Origin: a virus | Taxonomy: Duplodnaviria; Heunggongvirae; Uroviricota; Caudoviricetes | Strand: one strand, 5' to 3' | Virus record (IMG/VR): IMGVR_UViG_2684622579_000002 | DNA: 16,029 bases | In this document: piece by piece, positions 3,755 through 16,029 of the stretch | Layout of the letters: every line of letters starts with the position of its first letter | How positions within the stretch are numbered: position 1 is the first letter of the stretch | Position numbers and translations under genes: made by a program | The notes under the pieces: generated by a model | Told to the model about the DNA's origin: nothing | The model's input: the letters and a program-made list of their open reading frames with translations, nothing else | The model's database searches: none

Positions 3755-3800
3755 ATTCGTAATGCGAAGGTCGTAGGTTCGACTCCTATTATCGGCACCA
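3755..3800 (+). other. 46-nt 3' fragment of a tRNA-Thr(CGU)-like gene (anticodon loop through CCA) lacking the 5' half: probable att core or direct repeat at an island junction
   Basis: attcgtaatgcgaaggtcgtaggttcgactcctattatcggcacca contains an anticodon loop with CGT, a T-arm GGTTCGACTCC and an acceptor 3' strand TATCGGC-A-CCA. No complementary GCCGATA acceptor 5' strand is present upstream, so this is not an intact tRNA. Confidence 0.7.
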
Positions 3801-3964
3801 TCACCTAGTTTTCCCAAGTCAACCCACATCAACAAAATCATTTAAAAACATATATATTACGTTATTTTCATACGTTTGAGGTCAACCCTTGTCTCTTGAA
3901 ATCAACACGCGGTTGGGGGCACAATCAGGGGCATGTTCTGTTCGGTCTAGGAAATGTGCCCCCA

Positions 3965-5155
3965 ATGATGCTGAATGCCCGCAAGGTTGAAGCTGCGAAA
4001 GGAAAAGAGAAGAGCTACAAGCTGTTTGATGGAGGTGGCCTATACCTTCAGGTCGAACCTAATGGCTCGCGTTACTGGCGTATGAAATACCGTTTTGCTG
4101 GTAAAGAGAAACGATTGTCCTTTGGTGTTTATCCAACAGTCACACTTGCTGATGCCAGACAAAAACGAGAAGACGCGAAGAAACTACTCGCAGCAGGTGA
4201 AGATCCCGGCGAAGTCAAAAAAGCCAAAAAGCAGGCTTTAAATGCAGCGATTGAGACACTTAACCCATTCAGAGAAGTGGCGTTAGAGTGGCACAAAATG
4301 AAATCACCCAAATGGTCTGAGGGCTATGCTTCCGACATCATTGAGGCATTCGAGAAAGACATTTTCCCGCATATTGGGCACAGACCTATAGCTGATATTC
4401 AGCCCCTTGAACTGCTTGAAGTTCTGAGGTTGATAGAAGCTCGAGGCGCTATGGAGAAAGCGAAGAAAGTCCGTCAGCGATGCGGTGAAGTTTTTCGCTA
4501 TGCCATCGTAACGGGTAGGGCAATCTACAATCCGGCACCGGATCTTGCCAGTGCGATGCAAGGACATGAAGCAGTCCACTATCCATTCCTCAAAGCCAAC
4601 GAACTACCGGAGTTCTTTAATGCCCTTAATTCTTATTCAGGAAGTCCAATTGTATTGTTGGGGGCGCATTTACTTATCCTGACAGGTCTACGAACTGGAG
4701 AACTACGAGCAGGTGAGTGGCGAGAGGTGGATTTTGATAATGCGGTGTGGGAGATCCCAAAAGAACGTATGAAAATGCGTAGGAGCCATATTGTCCCGTT
4801 GTCAAAACAAGCATTATCCCATCTCAAAAGTTTGAAAGAACTAACTGGGAACTACCCGCTGATGTTCCCTGGACGCAACGATCCTAGCAAATTTATGAGT
4901 GAAGCAAGCATTAATCAGGTGTTTAAACGTATTGGATATGCAGGGCGTGTTACGGGGCATGGTTTCAGGCATACGATGAGTACAATCCTACATGAGAAAG
5001 GATTTAACAGCGCTTGGATTGAAACCCAGCTTGCTCATTCGGACAAAAACTCTATTCGTGGAATTTATAACCATGCCCAATATCTCGAAGGGAGAAGAGA
5101 AATGATGCAATGGTATGCTAATTATTTATCTGAGCTAATTGGTACTCATAAATGA
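3965..5155 (+). CDS. int: Tyrosine recombinase, P4-type integrase (about 396 aa)
   Basis: N-terminal MLNARKVEAAKGKEKSYKLFDGGGLYLQV is the characteristic P4-integrase N-terminal arm; C-terminal catalytic region has HGFRHTMST and a downstream tyrosine context (IRGIYNHAQY). Immediately follows the tRNA 3' fragment. Start placed at ATG 3965/3968 rather than the TTG at 3896 given in the ORF track. Confidence 0.9.
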   Translation: MMLNARKVEAAKGKEKSYKLFDGGGLYLQVEPNGSRYWRMKYRFAGKEKRLSFGVYPTVTLADARQKREDAKKLLAAGEDPGEVKKAKKQALNAAIETLNPFREVALEWHKMKSPKWSEGYASDIIEAFEKDIFPHIGHRPIADIQPLELLEVLRLIEARGAMEKAKKVRQRCGEVFRYAIVTGRAIYNPAPDLASAMQGHEAVHYPFLKANELPEFFNALNSYSGSPIVLLGAHLLILTGLRTGELRAGEWREVDFDNAVWEIPKERMKMRRSHIVPLSKQALSHLKSLKELTGNYPLMFPGRNDPSKFMSEASINQVFKRIGYAGRVTGHGFRHTMSTILHEKGFNSAWIETQLAHSDKNSIRGIYNHAQYLEGRREMMQWYANYLSELIGTHK

Positions 5156-7574: not shown

Positions 7575-7954
7575 ACCAGCCGCAGGTTTCCATTTTCCCG
7601 GCAGAAATGACCACCGCGCTTTACCGGCGGGCTATTGCTTCAGCATGGCGGCAGAAAATGCTGAACGAAACTGGCAGTGATCAGTATGGTCCGCACAGCC
7701 TGACGGTGGAGCGTATTGAAATGGCCATTGCGCTGCATATCGAGTGCGTACTGATTAACGAGTACGGCGAAGTGCAGGGCGCCGCTACCGCGCTGGCACT
7801 GCTGACTGACATGCTGGAGCCGTCACTGCTGACCGCGCCGCCGGTACTGACCGCGCGCGGCTGTGAAGTGATGGCGGAGATGTACCGCACGCTTCCGGCG
7901 GCCTTTGATGACTTCTGCAGTACCGGTGTGACGTTGTATGAGGGGGAAGTATGA
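7571..7954 (+). CDS. Hypothetical protein (127 aa)
   Basis: ATG 7571 with GGAGGT SD; ATGA overlaps at both ends indicate translational coupling into the primase gene. Confidence 0.55.
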   Translation: MNQPQVSIFPAEMTTALYRRAIASAWRQKMLNETGSDQYGPHSLTVERIEMAIALHIECVLINEYGEVQGAATALALLTDMLEPSLLTAPPVLTARGCEVMAEMYRTLPAAFDDFCSTGVTLYEGEV

Positions 7955-10623
7955 CAATACGGACGGTTACGCAGATTTCAGCCGCCGCACGGGGGAAATG
8001 GCCCGTTATTCTGCAGATGCTGCGTATTGATGTACCTGAAAACGGCAGGCACGGTCCCTGCCCGAAATGTGGGGGCAAGGATCGTTTTCGCCTTGATGAC
8101 CTTGACGGGCGCGGGACGTGGATCTGCAGCCAGTGTGGCAATGGTGACGGTCTGGATCTGGTTAAGCTCGTAACCGGTTACAGCGTCAGAAAGGCTGCGC
8201 AGGAGGTGGCGCAGGTGCTTAATGTGCCGGATGTGCAGGAACTGCCTGTTAAGCCTGCCAGACAAAAAGCCCCTAAACGAGACATGGGTCTTACCGTGGC
8301 GGCGCTGATGAAAGAGAGCCACACGGGAGAAAGCGCCTATCTGACAGGAAAAGGGTTCGCCGGATACCCGGCCTCTCTGACCGGAAGCGTGCAGCATATC
8401 AGCGGTAAGGATTTTCCTGCCGGTTCCCTGCTGTTACCACTCACGACCAACACCGGAGCCGTGACCGGTGCACAGCTTATCGCCCCGACGGGTGAAAAAA
8501 GCATACTGCCCGGCAGCACGATGAAAGGCGCGTTTGTGTCGCTCAGCCCGTTACCGTCTGAACCACCGGTACAGGTGGTGATTACCGAAGGTTACGCTAC
8601 GGCGCTGACGGTAAGCCAGCTCACTGCCGGATGCGTAGTGGCTGCCATATCTGCGGGCAACCTGCCCAATGTGGCGCAGTCGCTGCGGGCACGCTGGCCT
8701 GAGGTAAAAATTATCATCGCCGGTGATAACGATTTTCAGGACGGGGGTGAGAATCCCGGCAGAGCCTTTGCTGAACGGGCGGCAAAAGCTGTTGGCGGCT
8801 GGATGACGCTGCCACCAGGAGAGATTAAGGCTGACTGGAATGACTTTCATCGGGAGCACGGTATTACCCGTGCCCGTGAAGCCTTTCGCAACGGTCTGGT
8901 ACTGTGCGGGGAAGGCCGCACGCAACTGCCGCACGGGTTCCGTCTTACCCAGGAATATCTCTGGTATGAAAAGCAGGTACAGCGCAACGGTGAGACGGAG
9001 ATCCAGAACGTCAAAATATGCAGCCCGCTGCGCGTGACGGCAATTACCTGCGATGCCGATGGCGGTAACTTCGGACGACTGCTGGAATGGGAAGATACGT
9101 GGGGTGAGTGTCGCCGCTGGGCGATGCCAATGGAAATGCTGAGCGGCAGTGGTGAGGAACTGCGCCGGGTACTGCTGGTTAACGGGCTGTCTTATATCAG
9201 CACCACCGGTGAGGCACGCGCACGCCTGATGGAATATATCTCACTGTGTAAACCGGAACGCCGCGTGACCTGCGTCAGTCGTACTGGCTGGCATGGTCAG
9301 GTTTACGTCCTGCAGGATGAGGTCAGCGGTGAAGGTGCAGAGGGTGTCATTCTCCAGACCACTTCCGTGCAGGGGCGTGATTTCCGCGTGTCGGGCACAA
9401 CAGAGGAATGGCGGGAGCATGTATCCCGCTACTGTACCGGCAACTCCCGCGTGGCATTTGCTGTCAGCCTGGCCTTTGCTGCACCACTGTTACGGCTGGT
9501 TGGTATGGACGGCGGCGGCTACCACCTCAAAGGGGAATCGACAGACGGTAAGACCACCACCATGAAAGCGGCAACCTCCGTCTGCGGCGGGCCTGACTAC
9601 TGGCAGACATGGCGGGCCACCGGCAACGCGCTGGAGGGATGCGCCAGCCGCCGTAACGATGCCGCCATGATGCTTGATGAGATCCGGGAAGTTGACGGAC
9701 GCGAGGCAGGCAATATCGCCTACATGCTGGCAAACGGTCAGGGCAAGGGCCGTGCCGGTACGGACGGTGAGCTGCGTACCCGTAAGCAGTGGCGCCTGTT
9801 GTTCTTTTCAACTGGCGAGTTGTCTCTGACCGAACATGCGGCAAAGGCCGGTGAGCGTACTTTTGCCGGGATGGAAGTCAGGATGATCCAGATCCCCAGC
9901 GATTCCGGGAAGTTTGGCGTTTTTGAGGAGCTGCACGGCTTCGACAGCGGCAAGGCTCTGGCAGAGCATCTTGAATGGGCCACGTCCTGCTACTACGGTT
10001 CGCCGTTCCGGGAGTGGCTGAAAGCACTGACCGCTGATCTTAACGGACTAACGGCACAGGCAAAATCGCTGATGAAGGAATATGCTGCCGCCCTGACTCC
10101 GAAAGATGCAGGCAATCAGGTGGGCCGGGCTGTGAACCGCTTTGCACTGGTGGCGATGGCAGGTGAACTGGCAACCCGTCTGGGTATCACCGGCTGGCCT
10201 GAGGGTGAAGCACTGCGGGCAACCCGCGTCTGCCTGAACGCATGGCTGAAAGATCGCGGGCACACCGCCAATCAGGAAGATATCGCCGCACTGGAGCAGG
10301 TTCGCAGTTTCTTTACCGCGAATCAGTACAGCCGCTTTGCAGACTGGTATGACGAGCGCAACCGCCCCGGCAATATGGTGGGCTGGCGCAGGGTGGAGAA
10401 AGGCAGTACCGCGCAGGGCACGGAAGCTGTCACTACGTTCTATGTCATGCCGTCCGGCTGGAAAGAAATCTGCAGGGGATTTGACCCGCGCAAGGTGGCG
10501 CGTCTGTGCGCAGATCGTGGATACCTGCTGCCCTCCACTGATGGCAAACTCCAGACAACCATTCGCCCGCCAGAGATGAATCCCCGCAGGCTCTATGTCT
10601 TCAACAGCGAGGTGCCGGGTTAA
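7951..10623 (+). CDS. P4-alpha-like primase-helicase (890 aa): zinc ribbon, TOPRIM and C-terminal P-loop NTPase domains
   Basis: N-terminal CPKCGG...CSQCG zinc-binding motif; TOPRIM-like VVITEGYATALTV and IIIAGDNDFQD; Walker A-like GESTDGKTT. GAGGGGGA SD upstream of ATG 7951. Confidence 0.9.
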   Translation: MTIRTVTQISAAARGKWPVILQMLRIDVPENGRHGPCPKCGGKDRFRLDDLDGRGTWICSQCGNGDGLDLVKLVTGYSVRKAAQEVAQVLNVPDVQELPVKPARQKAPKRDMGLTVAALMKESHTGESAYLTGKGFAGYPASLTGSVQHISGKDFPAGSLLLPLTTNTGAVTGAQLIAPTGEKSILPGSTMKGAFVSLSPLPSEPPVQVVITEGYATALTVSQLTAGCVVAAISAGNLPNVAQSLRARWPEVKIIIAGDNDFQDGGENPGRAFAERAAKAVGGWMTLPPGEIKADWNDFHREHGITRAREAFRNGLVLCGEGRTQLPHGFRLTQEYLWYEKQVQRNGETEIQNVKICSPLRVTAITCDADGGNFGRLLEWEDTWGECRRWAMPMEMLSGSGEELRRVLLVNGLSYISTTGEARARLMEYISLCKPERRVTCVSRTGWHGQVYVLQDEVSGEGAEGVILQTTSVQGRDFRVSGTTEEWREHVSRYCTGNSRVAFAVSLAFAAPLLRLVGMDGGGYHLKGESTDGKTTTMKAATSVCGGPDYWQTWRATGNALEGCASRRNDAAMMLDEIREVDGREAGNIAYMLANGQGKGRAGTDGELRTRKQWRLLFFSTGELSLTEHAAKAGERTFAGMEVRMIQIPSDSGKFGVFEELHGFDSGKALAEHLEWATSCYYGSPFREWLKALTADLNGLTAQAKSLMKEYAAALTPKDAGNQVGRAVNRFALVAMAGELATRLGITGWPEGEALRATRVCLNAWLKDRGHTANQEDIAALEQVRSFFTANQYSRFADWYDERNRPGNMVGWRRVEKGSTAQGTEAVTTFYVMPSGWKEICRGFDPRKVARLCADRGYLLPSTDGKLQTTIRPPEMNPRRLYVFNSEVPG

Positions 10624-11023: not shown

Positions 11024-11767
11024 ATGAACAACACCGCAGTGAATAACAACCTTTCCACTTTTCCGGCTGTAACGCAGCGGGCACTGGAAACCATGAACAC
11101 AGCCAGAAACGCATGGCTTGAAGCACGTCGTCAGCAGAAAGCGGCAGCGGATAATATTGCGACAATCCGCCAGCGTCGCGCTGAAATGGAAGCCACGACG
11201 AACACACTGAATGAGGAGTGGCGCACGCTGTTTCGTGAAAGTCAGGGCGTGGTCTCAAAGGAAATGAAAAAACTGCGCACGGAAATTGCGCTGGGACGAG
11301 AAACTCTTGAGGATTTTGATGAGCTGCTGGAGGCTCAGGAAAGCGAAAATGCACTTTTGCCGCAGAAAGCTGCGGAATTAGCCGGAAAGTATATCCACGC
11401 GCATAACATCCTTGTGGATATTCGCGCAAAACAAATCTGGGAAGATTTTATGCAGTCGCATGGAAAAGCGCTTATTCAGACGCTGAGCCTGCTTAAATCC
11501 ACAATGGGCCGGGAAGCCAGTGCCGTTGTGGGTGTGGTGAATTCAGTTAATGACCCGGACACAGTGCTGAAAGACTTTATTCATAAACATATCACCAGAC
11601 CGGCTCTGGCTAACGATGCGATGCCTGAGCAGGACCCGGTGTTTAAACTGGCGGGAGTTGCCCCGGATTATGCGGCGCGTCTGGATTTCAGTAATCAACT
11701 CTCTCCGGCAGCTATGCATAAAATTAAGGTTCGTCAGGAACTTGCTGAGAAGGAGAAAGCAGTATGA
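11024..11767 (+). CDS. Sid/Psu-family protein (247 aa); by size and position probably a Sid-like capsid size-determination scaffold
   Basis: GGAG SD 5 nt upstream; shares NAWLEARRQQKAAAD and DFMQSHGKAL motifs with the downstream Psu-like protein; ATGA coupling to the next gene. Confidence 0.6.
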   Translation: MNNTAVNNNLSTFPAVTQRALETMNTARNAWLEARRQQKAAADNIATIRQRRAEMEATTNTLNEEWRTLFRESQGVVSKEMKKLRTEIALGRETLEDFDELLEAQESENALLPQKAAELAGKYIHAHNILVDIRAKQIWEDFMQSHGKALIQTLSLLKSTMGREASAVVGVVNSVNDPDTVLKDFIHKHITRPALANDAMPEQDPVFKLAGVAPDYAARLDFSNQLSPAAMHKIKVRQELAEKEKAV

Positions 11768-12315
11768 CGGCCCGAGGCACGCCTGACCAGGCACTTACCA
11801 GTTTTCGGAATGCCCGTATTCTGTGGGCCGGACATAATGAGAGCCGAAAAGCCGTTGAACAACAGATAACATCTCTCCTCGCTGCCACAGAAAAACCAGC
11901 AGATTATGCCCGACAGCTCGAATTACTGCGGGAACGTCTGGATGTGCTGAAATGGCAAATTAACTGTGCTGCGCGCGAATGCATTTACTCGCAGCATTTA
12001 CTGATGGAGGCCTGCACAGAAGCCGCTCTCAGCAATTTTATGCAGGCGAATGGGGCAGCCCTGACATCTGCACTGGCTCCGTTCCTGAAGGGGCGCGGAG
12101 GGGTTGACGTTGCGTCCCGTATATTACGCAGTGCTCTGGTTCGCCAGCTGGCAATAACACCGCCTGAAATTGCCGGGGATTATCGTGAGATCCTGGATGA
12201 ATCCGGTTTGATGCCTGACCCCGGGATGATTCGTGATTGCCAGGGTTCTTACACCCCGGCACAACATCTGCGTTTTCAGCAACGCCTGAATGACATTAAC
12301 GATATACAGGAGTGA
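11764..12315 (+). CDS. psu: Psu-like polarity suppression / capsid decoration protein (183 aa)
   Basis: LKWQINCAARECIYSQH and FMQANGAALTSALAPFLKG match my recollection of P4 Psu (VRKWQVNQAAGRYI and FMQQHGTALAAALAP); similar length to P4 Psu. Confidence 0.65.
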   Translation: MTARGTPDQALTSFRNARILWAGHNESRKAVEQQITSLLAATEKPADYARQLELLRERLDVLKWQINCAARECIYSQHLLMEACTEAALSNFMQANGAALTSALAPFLKGRGGVDVASRILRSALVRQLAITPPEIAGDYREILDESGLMPDPGMIRDCQGSYTPAQHLRFQQRLNDINDIQE

Positions 12316-12320
12316 TATTA

Positions 12321-12593
12321 ATGGCACTTAAATGTCCGGAATGCGGTACAGTTGCACACGCCAGAACAGCAGCCTATGAAGCTCCGTCAGTTAAACGCTC
12401 GTGGTATCAGTGCCAGAATCTGGAATGTTCCTGCACATTTACGGCACTGGAGAGTGTGGATAAGATAATCATGAAACCCCGGCGCAATGAACAGCTATCA
12501 GACAAAGCACAATCCCCGGAAAAACAACAGCAAACGCTCAATCGCTATGGCTCCGCGTCAAAACTGTCAAGCCGTCAGCAGATTCCTGTCTGA
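12321..12593 (+). CDS. ogr: Ogr/Delta-family zinc-finger late transcription activator (90 aa)
   Basis: CPECG...HART...YQCQNLECSCTF matches the Cys4 pattern of P2 Ogr (CPLCQ...HART...HQCQNVNCSATF); AGGAG SD 8 nt upstream of ATG 12321. The ORF track started it at the GTG at 12312. Confidence 0.8.
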   Translation: MALKCPECGTVAHARTAAYEAPSVKRSWYQCQNLECSCTFTALESVDKIIMKPRRNEQLSDKAQSPEKQQQTLNRYGSASKLSSRQQIPV

Positions 12594-12613
12594 TTAGAAA
12601 AAAACGCCCACGT

Positions 12614-12640
12614 AATCCCGGTCGAGTACCGGGATTTTTA
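12614..12640 (+). terminator. Rho-independent terminator after the ogr-like gene
   Basis: aatcccggt / accgggatt 9-bp stem with a 5-nt loop, followed by a T-run (gggattttt) 20 nt after the stop codon. Confidence 0.65.
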
Positions 12641-13050
12641 ACACCTTTTCCCTGGCTGGCCTGAGAGCGCATGAGTGCATGTCTATGGCGCATGAAAATG
12701 CATGAGCCTTATGCACCTTTTTTGAGGCGAAAACCTTTGTGTGGTGGTATCTGAGACGATTTATGGCATGCATGAAAACCAGTCTGTTAAGCGAAGCGGG
12801 CAGGCGTGCGGGGCTGCCCGCGATAGCACTGAAATCAACAGGTAAAACTATTTTTTATTAGTAGTGTAAACTGGGAGCGAACGGACTCTGTCATGCTGTA
12901 TCATCCTGTAATGATCAATCTCACTGGTGTCTGTATAGATGTCAACCAGTTTCGACGGCTGTGTCTAACTTAAAATTAGAGCTTAATCAAGTTTTTCCTC
13001 GAGAATACTTTTAAAAGACAATGAGTTATGAGAAAGTGGAGGCTGTCACG

Positions 13051-13079
13051 TTGGTCATATGTAACACTCCACGTAATCT
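13051..13079 (+). promoter_or_regulatory. Putative sigma70-type promoter (TTGGTC - 17 nt - TAATCT) for the three-gene operon
   Basis: -35-like TTGGTC 13051-13056, 17-nt spacer, -10-like TAATCT 13074-13079, about 44 nt upstream of ATG 13123. Identified by eye only. Confidence 0.3.
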
Positions 13080-13122
13080 TAATCGCTTTGTAAATGTTGA
13101 AGTTAATTAATAGGGAAAACTG

Positions 13123-14082
13123 ATGCTAACCAGGGCTGAAAATATAAGAAAAATCACAAGCTATTTAGCTATTCTCTCAAGAGAGGTTGAGATTAGTGCC
13201 TCCCTCAATCTTTTGGATATCAACGTTCAAGCGGAATCTTTTTATAGAGATTTCTTAAACTTATGTTATGGATATAATTTAAGAAATACCAATAGTGAAG
13301 AGCAAAACTACCAAGCAATAGATCTTGCTGATGAAGATCGGAAGATTGCTATACAAGTAACTTCAACTTCTGACTTGGGAAAAATTAAGAATACAGTTGA
13401 TGGATTTATAAAAAGTAAGCAATATGAAAAATATGATAGACTAATTGTACTGAATATAACTGAAAAGAAAAAGCACAGATTGAAAGAGTATGGAATAGCC
13501 GGGTGCTATGTAATTAATATCAAAGATGATGTATGGGATTATAAGGATATAATTAGAAAGATAAACGATTTGAATGATTGTGATATATCAACAATATGCT
13601 CATTTTTGGAACGTAATATTAATACTAAAGCTGCTGATAAACCGCCGAAAGAAGTCACAACTATGTTTGCGATGATTGAATTATTGAGTGATGATGCTCA
13701 CCCATTGGCAGGAAATGGATTTATTGAAGAGCCTAATCCTGAAAATAAAATATATAAAAGATTTTCAGATTATTCAGAGCGGTTGATTGGCTTATATACT
13801 GGGTTAGCTCCATTATATAGTGGGATATTTAAGTCAATAAAAGAACAGAGCGATATTGGTATCGTAAGGTACCAAAAGATGAGTTTGTATTTAGAGTCAT
13901 TTAGTGATAAGGTCTTAAGAAGCCATGGTGGAGATCCTATCTTGGCGCTTAATTATTTAAAAGAATATTTTTCTAAACAACTGAGCCAGAGAAATGTAGA
14001 TTACGATGAAACAGCTATCAAATTTTTCTTAATTGAGAATTTAATTGCATGTAACGTCTTTCCTAATTCGGAGATTCTTTGA
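13123..14082 (+). CDS. Hypothetical protein (319 aa), putative effector of a three-gene system; N-terminal region possibly SMEK-like
   Basis: AGGGA SD 6 nt upstream; AT-rich codon usage. N-terminal LNLLDINVQAESFYRDFLNLCYGYNL...IAIQVTSTSD resembles what I recall of SMEK-domain proteins of ABC-three-component systems; unverified. TGATG overlap with the next gene. Confidence 0.65.
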   Translation: MLTRAENIRKITSYLAILSREVEISASLNLLDINVQAESFYRDFLNLCYGYNLRNTNSEEQNYQAIDLADEDRKIAIQVTSTSDLGKIKNTVDGFIKSKQYEKYDRLIVLNITEKKKHRLKEYGIAGCYVINIKDDVWDYKDIIRKINDLNDCDISTICSFLERNINTKAADKPPKEVTTMFAMIELLSDDAHPLAGNGFIEEPNPENKIYKRFSDYSERLIGLYTGLAPLYSGIFKSIKEQSDIGIVRYQKMSLYLESFSDKVLRSHGGDPILALNYLKEYFSKQLSQRNVDYDETAIKFFLIENLIACNVFPNSEIL

Positions 14083-14330
14083 TGTTAAGTTTTTTTTCGA
14101 AAGATGAGGATTTGACAAAATCCCCTCCTGTTGTAGGGGCTAAAATTCTTAATTTATTTGACGAAACAAAAAAAGAAAAAATTAGTATTTTCGATTTAGC
14201 AAAAGAATTAAAGAAAAACAACTCTCTAGGAGTGCGTGCAATTTATTTTGGAATGGTCTTTCTTTATACTCTTGATCTTATCGATTTCGATGAGCCATAT
14301 GTGATAAATAAAAATGTTAAGAATAAATAA
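14082..14330 (+). CDS. Small protein (82 aa), putative middle/adaptor component
   Basis: ATG 14082 overlaps the upstream TGA (14080-14082); its 3' end overlaps the ATPase start by 17 nt; AT-rich. Confidence 0.55.
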   Translation: MLSFFSKDEDLTKSPPVVGAKILNLFDETKKEKISIFDLAKELKKNNSLGVRAIYFGMVFLYTLDLIDFDEPYVINKNVKNK

Positions 14331-16029
14331 ACTATATAGCATACCAGAATCTTTTGAGCCAGTAAGCTTTGATAGTGGCATCAATATCATCTTAGGTGAA
14401 AAAGATGTTTCATCTAACAAAACTAATGGAGTGGGTAAAACTCTTTTAATAGAGTTTATTAATTTTTGTTTATTAAAAGAATTTAAGTCGAGTAGAGTTT
14501 CTAAAATTCCTCATTCTGATTTTTCGAAAGACATTTTGATATGCCTTGATTTTAATATTGATAATATTAACATTATATCCCAGCGTTCTATTGGGAAACA
14601 TAATGAGCCAACACTTGTAATAAATGGAAAAACAATAGAGTTTAGTGGATTAGATGATGCGTTATCTCATTTAAGCAATCTTATCTTTAAGAATAGTAAG
14701 GGTATACTTCATCCATCATTTAGAGCGATGCTGGGGCCTCTGATACGCGATGAACGATCTGAATTTAAATCTATTGTTGAGTGCTTCGACACAAAATTAC
14801 ATATACCTGCTGACTATACTCCTCATCTTTATTTGTTAGGTATTGATATTGCTCCCTATAAAGAGGCAAAGATTTTACAACGAGAAATAGATGATTTATC
14901 AACTACAAAAAATAAAATAAAGAGAGATATTGAATTTCTGACGGGAAAAAAAATTAGTTCTGCAAAGGCAGAGGTTAATGATCTTAAATCAAAAGTTGAA
15001 CATATCAGAAACGCTATGGATGCATTTGATAGCGATAGCAGTTATGAACTTATCAAAGATGAAGTAGAAGAATTAGAAAGTTCTTTAGAAGAGTTGCGGA
15101 ATAAAAGAACAATACTTAAGTTAGAGCTTTCAAGAATAAATGCTCTCGTTGGTGAAGTATACATAAATGATGATGAAGTAGTTGAAATTTATAATAAATT
15201 TAAAGTTGGATTAGGTGATGCTATCAAAAAAGAACTTAATGATGTTATTTCATTTAAGAAAAAAATAGATCACTTCCAAAACACTTTGTTAAATACGCGA
15301 AAAGAAACATTACTTTCTGAATTGCGTAAGATATCAGATAAGCTATATACAGTAAATAGACTTTATAAAGAAAAAGCTAGTGTTTTTGAGCAGGCGGGGG
15401 GGTTTAAAAGCCTGAAAATTTTAATAATGACTTATCAGAAAAAGTTAGAGGAGTATTCACAGTTATCTTCATTGCTTAAAAAATTTGAAGATTTCGATTC
15501 TAAATGGAAAGTTAAGAAGTCAGAACGCTCTTCTATGATAATTTCGTTAGATCTTTCTATTATGGATAACGAAAAAACGATTGAATCTTTTGAGGAAACC
15601 ATTTTATCAATCCATGAATATGTTTTTGGAAATAGAAAGTGTTCTTTCGAAATTAAGGCGACAGAGAAGAAAGAAACTATCTCAATGGATTTAAGAATTG
15701 ATGATGACGGTAGTCATAGTAATGAGCGAGAAAAGGTTTTCTTTTATGATTTGGCTCTTTTACTTACAGAAGAAACGTTTCGACGTCACCCTGGATTATT
15801 AATTCATGATAATATTTTTGATGTGGATCAAGATACATTAATTAAAAGCTTGAATTATTTGGCAGAGAAATCCAGTTGCTTAAATGATGCACAATATATT
15901 TTGACGTTAAATAGCGACAAAATTAGTGAAATTGATAAAAGAGATTTGAAACTAGATATTAACTTCTATAAGCGAGCTTCGTTAACTAAAATAAATAGAT
16001 TCCTGGGAAGGCATTATCAAGAAATATAA
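14314..16029 (+). CDS. ABC/SMC-type coiled-coil ATPase (571 aa; the ORF ends exactly at the window edge)
   Basis: N-terminal P-loop region NIILGEKDVSSNKTNGVGKTLLIEF; long charged helical middle (EAKILQREIDDLSTTKNKIKRDIEFL...); C-terminal Walker B-like GLLIHDNIFDVD. TAA at 16027-16029. Confidence 0.8.
   Translation: MLRINKLYSIPESFEPVSFDSGINIILGEKDVSSNKTNGVGKTLLIEFINFCLLKEFKSSRVSKIPHSDFSKDILICLDFNIDNINIISQRSIGKHNEPTLVINGKTIEFSGLDDALSHLSNLIFKNSKGILHPSFRAMLGPLIRDERSEFKSIVECFDTKLHIPADYTPHLYLLGIDIAPYKEAKILQREIDDLSTTKNKIKRDIEFLTGKKISSAKAEVNDLKSKVEHIRNAMDAFDSDSSYELIKDEVEELESSLEELRNKRTILKLELSRINALVGEVYINDDEVVEIYNKFKVGLGDAIKKELNDVISFKKKIDHFQNTLLNTRKETLLSELRKISDKLYTVNRLYKEKASVFEQAGGFKSLKILIMTYQKKLEEYSQLSSLLKKFEDFDSKWKVKKSERSSMIISLDLSIMDNEKTIESFEETILSIHEYVFGNRKCSFEIKATEKKETISMDLRIDDDGSHSNEREKVFFYDLALLLTEETFRRHPGLLIHDNIFDVDQDTLIKSLNYLAEKSSCLNDAQYILTLNSDKISEIDKRDLKLDINFYKRASLTKINRFLGRHYQEI

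Follow-up and report, generated by a model that had tools for sequence, protein, structure and literature searches.

The cos site of P2 and P4 is defined in the literature as a 55-bp core shared by the two genomes (Ziermann and Calendar 1990, as quoted in PMC9594776, PMC2231350, and PMC5694545). The GenBank records of both P2 and P4 begin at GGCG, right after GCGGGCG in the circular junction. Comparison of the P2 and P4 ends with the phage regions yields a common plan of the P2-family cos: three GCATN boxes precede a TGCATKAAAACC box by about 95, 82, and 72 nt, and the latter box is followed by a 10-nt spacer, AAGCGGGCR, a 19-nt cohesive end starting with GGCG, and YGCGCGC. The array of three GCATN boxes is probably a defining feature of the P2/P4-family cos. 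In P2-like phages cos lies between the early region and the cargo or portal genes. Apart from P4 itself, phiR73 is the one satellite of this type known to have been packaged by P2.

It has also been published that in P4-like satellites cos abuts the defence hotspot (Rousset et al. 2022, PMC9122126). The cos–hotspot arrangement in general is thus already known. The only possibly new point of the present analysis is a satellite-only, length-compensated rearrangement of the cos core, of which no mention was found in the passages of that article that were consulted.

The P4-like satellite prophage

We analyzed a stretch of 16,029 nt (IMG/VR record IMGVR_UViG_2684622579_000002), referred to below as the window. 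The element in the window is a P4-like satellite prophage of about 12.4 kb, which is a packageable size. It is identified as such because it combines an integrase, an alpha primase-helicase, two Psu-family proteins, an Ogr/Delta protein, and an att repeat within about 12.4 kb. The features outside the cos region are the following.

3783 to 3801: 19-bp att repeat CTCCTATTATCGGCACCAT; together with a second copy about 190 nt past the window end it bounds the element of about 12.4 kb
3896 to 5155: tyrosine integrase
Between the integrase and the alpha gene: small regulatory genes, one of them Icd-like
7951 to 10623: alpha-type primase-helicase with Zn-ribbon, Toprim, and DUF927 domains (Pfam)
11024 to 11767: sid-like gene (Pfam Psu family)
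11764 to 12315: psu (Pfam Psu family)
12312 to 12593, plus strand: ogr/delta-like late-gene activator, a 93-aa zinc-finger protein (Pfam Ogr_Delta, E = 1e-15; RefSeq annotation)
12614 to 12641, plus strand: probable intrinsic terminator of the sid-psu-ogr operon, a 9-bp stem (AATCCCGGT/ACCGGGATT) followed by a T-run
13123 to 16029, plus strand: hotspot cargo, consisting of a SMEK_N-domain protein, an 83-aa ORF, and a DUF2326 protein (annotation; Pfam SMEK_N, DUF2326)

The gene set, the size (about 10–12 kb for this group), and the att repeats at a tRNA gene all agree with membership in the P4-like satellites, and the satellite core genes are all intact according to the RefSeq annotation and Pfam. 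An island next to tRNA-Thr in E. coli CD09 and its relatives is 99.6% identical to the window over 12.3 kb; strains with the element include CD09, VG12A2, and VE-T9. Just the last 46 nt of the tRNA-Thr gene are contained in the window (3755–3800), and neither ARAGORN nor Rfam reported a complete tRNA there. The DNA to the left (a resolvase at 1–555, a GIY-YIG protein at 616–1440, and unknown ORFs) is unlike that of CD09, and it appears that at thrW the satellite follows another island in tandem. The attP of the satellite lies between the cargo and int, so that in the prophage the cargo is found at the att end. A search of IMG/VR for the attP junction predicted for the excised or packaged form gave no matches.

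The ogr/delta-like gene is the final conserved gene ahead of cos. The stem at 12614–12641 behind it is retained in the sibling satellites with sequence changes, and the hairpin is likely to be the ogr terminator, going by its sequence, even if a consensus terminator scan missed it. The cargo, which follows after a gap of 530 nt, gave profile matches to PADLOC PDC-M68B (E = 1e-48) and to the N-terminal module of Aga_REase (E = 3e-41) and is a candidate anti-phage system. An identical SMEK protein occurs in 280 indexed blocks of the assembly collection; in all 10 places listed, of 24 contigs, it is found behind the same satellite backbone.

Identification of the probable cos region

The gap between ogr and the cargo contains the proposed cos. 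A preliminary description of this DNA had suggested a cos or packaging region here on account of repeated GCATGA-type motifs and a GC-rich hairpin followed by AGCACTG. By direct inspection of the sequence all of these motifs were found where it had placed them: gcgcatgag at 12667–12675, tatggcgcatgaaaa at 12684–12698, tatggcatgcatgaaaa at 12762–12778, a perfect 8-bp inverted repeat with a 10-nt loop (GCGGGCAG at 12796–12803 and CTGCCCGC at 12814–12821), and AGCACTG at 12826–12832. The parts of the region are as follows.

12669 to 12705, plus strand: GCATG(A) box cluster, with boxes at 12669, 12677, 12690, and 12700, that is 101, 93, 80, and 70 nt upstream of the core box
12706 to 12768, plus strand: spacer from the boxes to the core, with a conserved CATGC, a T-run, and CTGAGACGATTT
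12769 to 12821, plus strand: cos core of 53 bp (P2/P4 equivalent 55 bp), TGCATGAAAACC-AGTCTGTTAAGCGAAGCGGGCA-GGCGTGCGGGGCTG-CCCGC
12769 to 12780: core box TGCATGAAAACC
12796 to 12802, plus strand: GCGGGCA, which in the 186/Fels-2-type cos is the left flank of the top-strand cut site (cut between GCGGGCA and GGCG)
12803 to 12821, plus strand: candidate cohesive segment in the sequence register, 19 nt, GGCGTGCGGGGCTGCCCGC
12798 to 12816, plus strand: alternative cohesive segment in the distance register, 19 nt, GGGCAGGCGTGCGGGGCTG
12822 to 13122, plus strand: cargo-specific leader outside the conserved cos, starting with GATAGCACTG; the homology to the siblings stops at 12816–12822

Alignment of the region with the cos sequences of P2 and P4 did reveal similarity, and the closest relatives turned out to be Fels-2-type P2-like phages and not P2 or P4. 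A blast search of 12560–13130 against INPHARED at E <= 1e-5 gave no matches; the cos homologies emerged solely with an 86-nt query at a permissive threshold of E <= 10. At this setting the query matched P2-like phages only (Salmonella RE-2010; Klebsiella, Yersinia, and Burkholderia Peduoviridae; Escherichia phage 500465-1), and the matches, weak as they are, were always located in intergenic DNA at the position of the P2-family cos. Smith–Waterman z scores (500 shuffles) reached 11–16 against Fels-2-type cos and 4.9–5.5 against P4 and P2. The core is 66% identical to that of P4, 70% to that of P2, and 70–73% to those of Fels-2-type phages. It has the length of about 55 bp, the TGCATKAAAACC-type start, and the AAGCGGGCR followed by GGCG that characterize the family, with AAGCGGGCA at 12794–12802 directly followed by GGCGTGCGGGG at 12803–12813.

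In the window, as in the family, the GCATG boxes precede the GCATGAAAACC box by about 70–95 nt, and AAGCGGGCA joined to GGCGTGCGGGG comes next. Counted from the core box, the boxes are found at -93/-80/-70/0 in the window, with an extra one at -101, compared with -95/-82/-72/0 in P4 and the Fels-2-type phages and -94/-82/-72 in P2. Over the whole window GCATGA is no more frequent than expected (10 copies; expectation 11.7). Four copies on the same strand, at 12669, 12690, 12700, and 12770, are clustered within 107 nt, for which a rough Poisson estimate that allows for position gives less than 1e-4; extra GCATG copies are present at 12677 and 12766. Conservation is a stronger argument for the boxes than these cluster statistics, and the same boxes recur at near-identical spacing at the cos of P2, P4, and Fels-2-type phages. 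The block GAGTGCATGTCTATGnnGCATGAnnnnGCATGA, which is common to the Fels-2-type helper cos, is the best-conserved part of the spacer region among the satellites. The spacer at 12706–12768 is nearly constant in length and is 2 nt shorter than that of the helper phages. We propose the box cluster as the cosB-like, terminase-binding part of cos.

The location also agrees. The region lies between conserved genes and a cos-proximal variable region, a layout found likewise in P4, RE-2010, 500465-1, and P2, and it occupies the P4-like position after the sid/psu/delta late genes and directly ahead of the variable cargo, as the preliminary description had noted. Homology to experimentally defined and predicted P2-family cos sites thus bears out the suggestion of a packaging region. 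Its detailed likeness to P2/P4 cos has to be redrawn, in that the match consists of TGCATGAAAACC and, further on, AAGCGGGCA joined to GGCGTGCGGGG, plus the upstream GCATG boxes, whereas the AGCACTG at the end of the motif GCGGGG...AGCACTG lies in the cargo-specific flank, is absent from the sibling satellites, and was rejected as a part of cos.

The GC-rich hairpin is likewise incidental. The repeat is perfect in the window (single-stranded DNA fold of 12796–12821, -13.1 kcal/mol; z = -2.6 against shuffles, which is modest) but is not conserved among the sibling satellites, which carry CTGCGCGC, CTGTGCGC, CTGTTCGC, CTGCTCGC, or CAGCGCAC at this place. It may be better understood as two inverted flank motifs, GCGGGCA and TGCCCGC, that bracket the putative cut region.

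The conservation of the region is sharply bounded. Among the sibling satellites of the IMG/VR, GTDB, and metagenome loci, near-identity extends as far as ...GGGGCTG(N)(N)CGC, and no relationship is seen right after it; the homology ends at 12816–12822, where the cargo starts. In 34 distinct sibling sequences the core is near-invariant amid varying neighbouring DNA, and the best-conserved columns of the sibling alignment are those of the GCATG box block and the core. This conservation border indicates a cis-acting site that ends on the right at the point where the variable cargo begins. The segment from ogr to cos occurs in 848 of 5426 complete E. coli genomes (about 16%); the cargo and flank of the window follow it in 3 of the 5426. 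Over the aligned stretch the alpha protein is 98–99.8% identical to that of the window in five of the eight species-representative loci that carry the core (Shigella, one Citrobacter, Pseudocitrobacter, and both Enterobacter), and 95% identical in a sixth. Such near-identity across genera points to recent horizontal spread and hence to a working packaging signal.

A gene call on the antisense strand in one assembly (12594–12773) was rejected, since the frame is broken at varying points in most siblings. No Rfam family was found in the window. The region 12669–12821 is neither coding nor a known RNA, and it is a conserved cis-acting DNA site.

Based on homology, position, and conservation, we estimate the probability at roughly 0.85 that 12669–12821 is the functional cos of this P4-like satellite and is used by P2-family helper terminases, most likely of the Fels-2 type; it is on these same three grounds that cleavage and packaging are proposed to take place here. 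Fels-2-type phages are the likely helpers because the box block of the window is nearly identical to theirs.

Some observations concern the DNA beyond the border. The first bases of the leader, GATAGCACTG (12822–12831), are identical to the final 8 nt of one helper cosN class, GGCGAGGCGGGGATAGCAC, together with the 2 nt (TG) that follow it (L046, L080, and L127). In locus L199 the same flank (GATAGCACTGAAATC...) and the same cargo follow a different core variant. The likeness of GATAGCACTG may be a relic of cos-mediated cargo transfer or may be due to chance. In several sibling satellites the hotspot has, immediately behind cos, a portal gene resembling P2 gpQ (L153:7324–8502; also L163, L149, L150, and L213). 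This gene has about 60% identity to P2 Q, matches Pfam Phage_portal, and is oriented as Q is next to cos in P2. It looks like helper DNA captured by a crossover at cos, and in the satellite it could serve as a decoy or interference factor.

The rearranged core and candidate cut sites

The core of the window departs from the family plan in two respects. First, AAGCG is tandemly duplicated (12789–12798, plus strand), and because of this duplication the spacer between the core box and GCGGGCR measures 15 nt, compared with 10 nt in all P2-like loci and canonical satellites examined. The junction of GCGGGCA and GGCG is thereby shifted 5 nt farther from the GCATGAAAACC box than in every sampled helper phage. 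Second, the segment after this junction is shortened. Canonical segments have the form GGCG[AT]GGCGGGG plus 7 nt, followed by YGCGCGC; examples are GGCGAGGCGGGGAAAGCAC, GGCGTGGCGGGGAAAGCAT, GGCGTGGCGGGG[ACTG]TACGAG, and ...ATAGCAT/C, each then followed by YGCGCGC. The window reads GGCGTGCGGGG, with one G fewer, then CTG and CCCGC, and does not conform to this pattern. In the window class as a whole GGCG is followed by G[TG]G[CG]GGGGC[TA]G, which leads straight into a CGCGCGC-type box. The distance from GCGGGCA to this box is 14 nt and not 19, as one G and an ACGA-like piece, together 5 nt of the canonical 19-nt cohesive segment, are missing. In the window itself the right flank CCCGCGA matches the CGCGCGC box of the helpers at 5 of 7 positions. 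The gain and the loss of 5 nt cancel, so the core length is kept and MAFFT aligns helper and satellite cores without gaps. In this ungapped register a 19-nt segment of different sequence fits.

The comparison set comprised about 120 IMG/VR loci with a P2-family core. All loci in this set with P2 A, P, or Q genes have the 10-nt spacer and one of the canonical 19-nt segments named above, followed by YGCGCGC, and several P4-like satellites from IMG/VR carry exact helper-type 19-nt segments. The rearranged core was found in 33 IMG/VR loci, all 33 of them satellites, and in eight of eight species-representative genomes (GTDB, +5-spacer pattern), again all satellites (Shigella, two Citrobacter, Pseudocitrobacter, two Enterobacter, Scandinavium, and Pantoea). 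A further 65 metagenome contigs have the same spacer and left core; the segment is shortened in most of these too, though not in all (L196 and L227 are among the exceptions). Judged by gene content, six of the eight metagenome contigs checked are satellites, two have no marker-gene match within the contig sequence, and none is a helper. Searches of IMG/VR, INPHARED, and the eight species-representative genomes carrying the rearranged core yielded no helper phage that has it, and in these collections this core has no helper counterpart of the kind that the P4 core has in P2. The rearranged core is assumed to be compatible with enterobacterial terminases.

Odd variants also occur. L227 shows a further deletion in the core. 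L196 (ERZ781269.53, at about 4162, minus strand), a P4-like satellite, has a hybrid cos in which window-type boxes and the 15-nt spacer are followed by a canonical-type, full-length GGCGTGGCGGGGGCTACGAG and CGCGCC. It arose by recombination between the two cos classes or else represents an intermediate in their evolution, and it indicates that the GCGGGCAGGCGTG stretch is truly homologous between them.

Separately, Escherichia phage 500465-1 (NC_049342; L011:5080–5140) combines a canonical core with GGCGTGCGGGG, which like the window has one G fewer. The portal and terminase genes of this prophage are split into pieces, for which reason the missing G may reflect a sequencing error or decay rather than a real helper variant.

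Where the staggered nicks would fall can be predicted in more than one way. A first candidate places the top-strand nick between 12802 and 12803, as in the helpers, and the bottom-strand nick between 12821 and 12822, 19 nt on, which would give GGCGTGCGGGGCTGCCCGC. The first 11 nt of this segment equal the helper GGCGTG(G)CGGGG minus one G, TGCCCGC at 12815–12821 is an inverted copy of GCGGGCA, and the bottom nick fits the end of conservation. A second candidate has the nicks after each inverted flank motif, which would give a 12-nt overhang (12803–12814); in a variant of it the nick precedes the CGCGCGC-type box, giving 14 nt (12803–12816). A third candidate keeps the nicks at the helper distances from the outer boxes, giving GGGCAGGCGTGCGGGGCTG (12798–12816). 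The GCATGAAAACC box and the CGCGCGC-type box of the right flank are then as far from this segment as they are in the helper phages, and the segment fits the kept core length, the CGCGCGC box that comes next in most siblings (straight after ...GGGGCTG), and the Burkholderia alignment.

One of the 65 metagenome contigs, a sibling satellite (L212; OGHK01005189.1, 6078 nt), ends exactly after ...AAGCGGGCAGGCGTGCGGGGCTG, corresponding to position 12816 of the window. We rejected this end as proof of a physical cos end, because the variants diverge at the next base and an assembly branch point explains it equally well. The starts of two independent contigs (L190 and L222) coincide, lying within the GCATG cluster 74 nt ahead of the TGCATGAAAAC box. 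It follows that assemblies tend to break at the GCATG repeats and that contig ends have to be read as DNA ends with caution.

Tentatively, this widespread satellite lineage may use a satellite-only, re-registered cos core in which the cut-site motif GCGGGCA/GGCG is displaced by 5 bp through the AAGCG duplication and the cohesive segment is shortened or re-phased by the loss of 5 nt; we regard this as rather doubtful. If it is true, the ends of the packaged DNA would have a sequence, and perhaps also a length (12–14 nt against 19 nt), unlike that of any helper phage. The satellite ends would then be uncoupled from the helper ends, with no cross-annealing to helper genomes, and the competition of the satellite for the helper terminase could change.

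The same departures could be read as damage, the region being a decayed, non-functional cos relic of a domesticated satellite that persists as a vertically inherited defence island at thrW. The core differs from all sampled helper cos in its spacing and in its 3' part, which lacks an ACGAG- or AAGCAC-type sequence; a helper with the same core was missing from IMG/VR and the eight species-representative genomes; the right flank box of the window is degenerate; and odd variants such as L227 and the hybrid L196 exist. Decay would nevertheless hardly leave a rearranged core nearly invariant over 34 distinct sequences whose neighbouring DNA varies, nor changes of +5 and -5 that cancel exactly. The occurrence in at least seven genera, with the near-identical alpha proteins in five of the eight loci and dozens of different cargos, argues for ongoing transfer, and all satellite core genes are intact. 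We consider a relic, although it is the main rival reading, unlikely.

It is very improbable that the region serves transcriptional control, with GCATG as operators for a satellite or helper regulator of the cargo and the inverted repeat as terminator or attenuator: an intergenic location between a conserved operon and cargo genes, repeated short motifs, and an inverted repeat of modest predicted stability would suit such a role, but the same boxes and core stand at the known cos position of helper phages beside unrelated genes (DinI, AIPR, TIR, portal), the boxes stay while the cargo genes change, the inverted repeat lacks a T-run and varies among the siblings, a scan of 12300–13200 found no promoter-like or terminator-like site, and the likely ogr terminator is a separate hairpin at 12614–12641.

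Proposed packaging model and comparison with known cos systems

Taking 12669–12821 as a functional cos, packaging could proceed as follows. A P2-like helper would trigger the satellite, and the excised, replicated circle would be recognized by the helper terminase (homologues of gpM and gpP). On the ogr side, the GCATG boxes and the GCATGAAAACC box would serve as binding sites for this terminase, which would then cut the GC-rich segment at about 12798–12821 by two staggered nicks. The linear satellite DNA would then be packed into small capsids remodelled by Sid, and the cohesive ends would re-circularize it in the next cell. Homology, position, the conservation border, and the distribution are shown by the data, and from there we infer the binding of terminase to the GCATG boxes, the cut positions, and the type of helper; the Fels-2-type P2-like phages are likely to be the natural helpers. 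Since the recognition elements would all lie on the ogr side, up to about 12821, variation in the DNA to the right would be tolerated, and the defence hotspot starts exactly there.

Locating cos fixes the left border of the defence hotspot and the ends of the capsid-borne DNA, which aids the annotation of related islands. The rearranged core is also a natural experiment on what P2-family terminases need, because the outer boxes are in place and the cut motif is half a helical turn away from its usual position. Efficient cleavage of the rearranged core would reveal which elements of the 55-bp core determine where the cuts fall, and it would mean that satellites need not copy the cohesive ends of their helper. 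The established picture of P4-like satellites stays unchanged.

The hotspot described by Rousset et al. (2022; PMC9122126) resembles that of the window in lying between the late genes and int/att, in adjoining cos, and in its sharp switch from conserved to variable DNA, and it shows no essential differences. The order of the late genes is sid-like, psu, and a single-domain 93-aa Ogr/Delta gene in the window, whereas it is sid, a double-domain 166-aa delta, and psu in P4.

The Burkholderia P2-like phages (for example vB_PL2b, PV072749) share GAAAACC-N6-GTTAAGCGAAG-N3-GCAGGCG with the window in the same register and with the same core length, which indicates that this form of the left flank exists in genuine P2-family phages. 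They belong to another host clade, the blast E value is weak (0.7), and the cohesive segment would by analogy be CCGCAGGCGGGGAGGGGAC.

The P4 cos (X51522, junction of 11460–11624 and 1–30) is like that of the window in lying after the late genes sid, delta, and psu and directly before non-essential cargo, which in P4 is gop/beta/cII. In both, three GCATN boxes and one GCATKAAAACC box are spaced almost alike and are followed by AAGCGGGC(R) joined to GGCG and by a GC-rich cohesive segment. The identity is 66% over the core and 57% over the 155-nt region. P4 differs in its 10-nt spacer and its 19-nt end GGCGAGGCGGGGAAAGCAC, which is identical to that of P2 and is followed by CGCGCGC; the window has the 15-nt spacer with the AAGCG duplication and GGCGTGCGGGGCTG, followed by CCCGC. 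The flanks GCGGGCA...TGCCCGC of the window appear to mirror the flanks GCGGGCR...YGCGCGC of the 19-nt ends in P2, 186, and the Fels-2-type phages.

The best matches to the window are the Fels-2-type cos sites (Salmonella RE-2010, Yersinia vB_YpM_MLG42, Escherichia 500465-1, and IMG/VR L119). They differ from it in having the 10-nt spacer and GGCGTGGCGGGG[AC]TACGAG followed by CGCGCGC, whereas in the window one G and the ACGA-type segment are missing and the distance from the boxes to the core box is 2 nt shorter. Near-identity is seen in the box block TGCATGTCTATGnnGCATGAnnnnGCATGA, in the TGCATGAAAACC box, and in AAGCGGGCAGGCGTG, and in the Fels-2-type phages, as in the satellite, the variable cargo starts just past the core.
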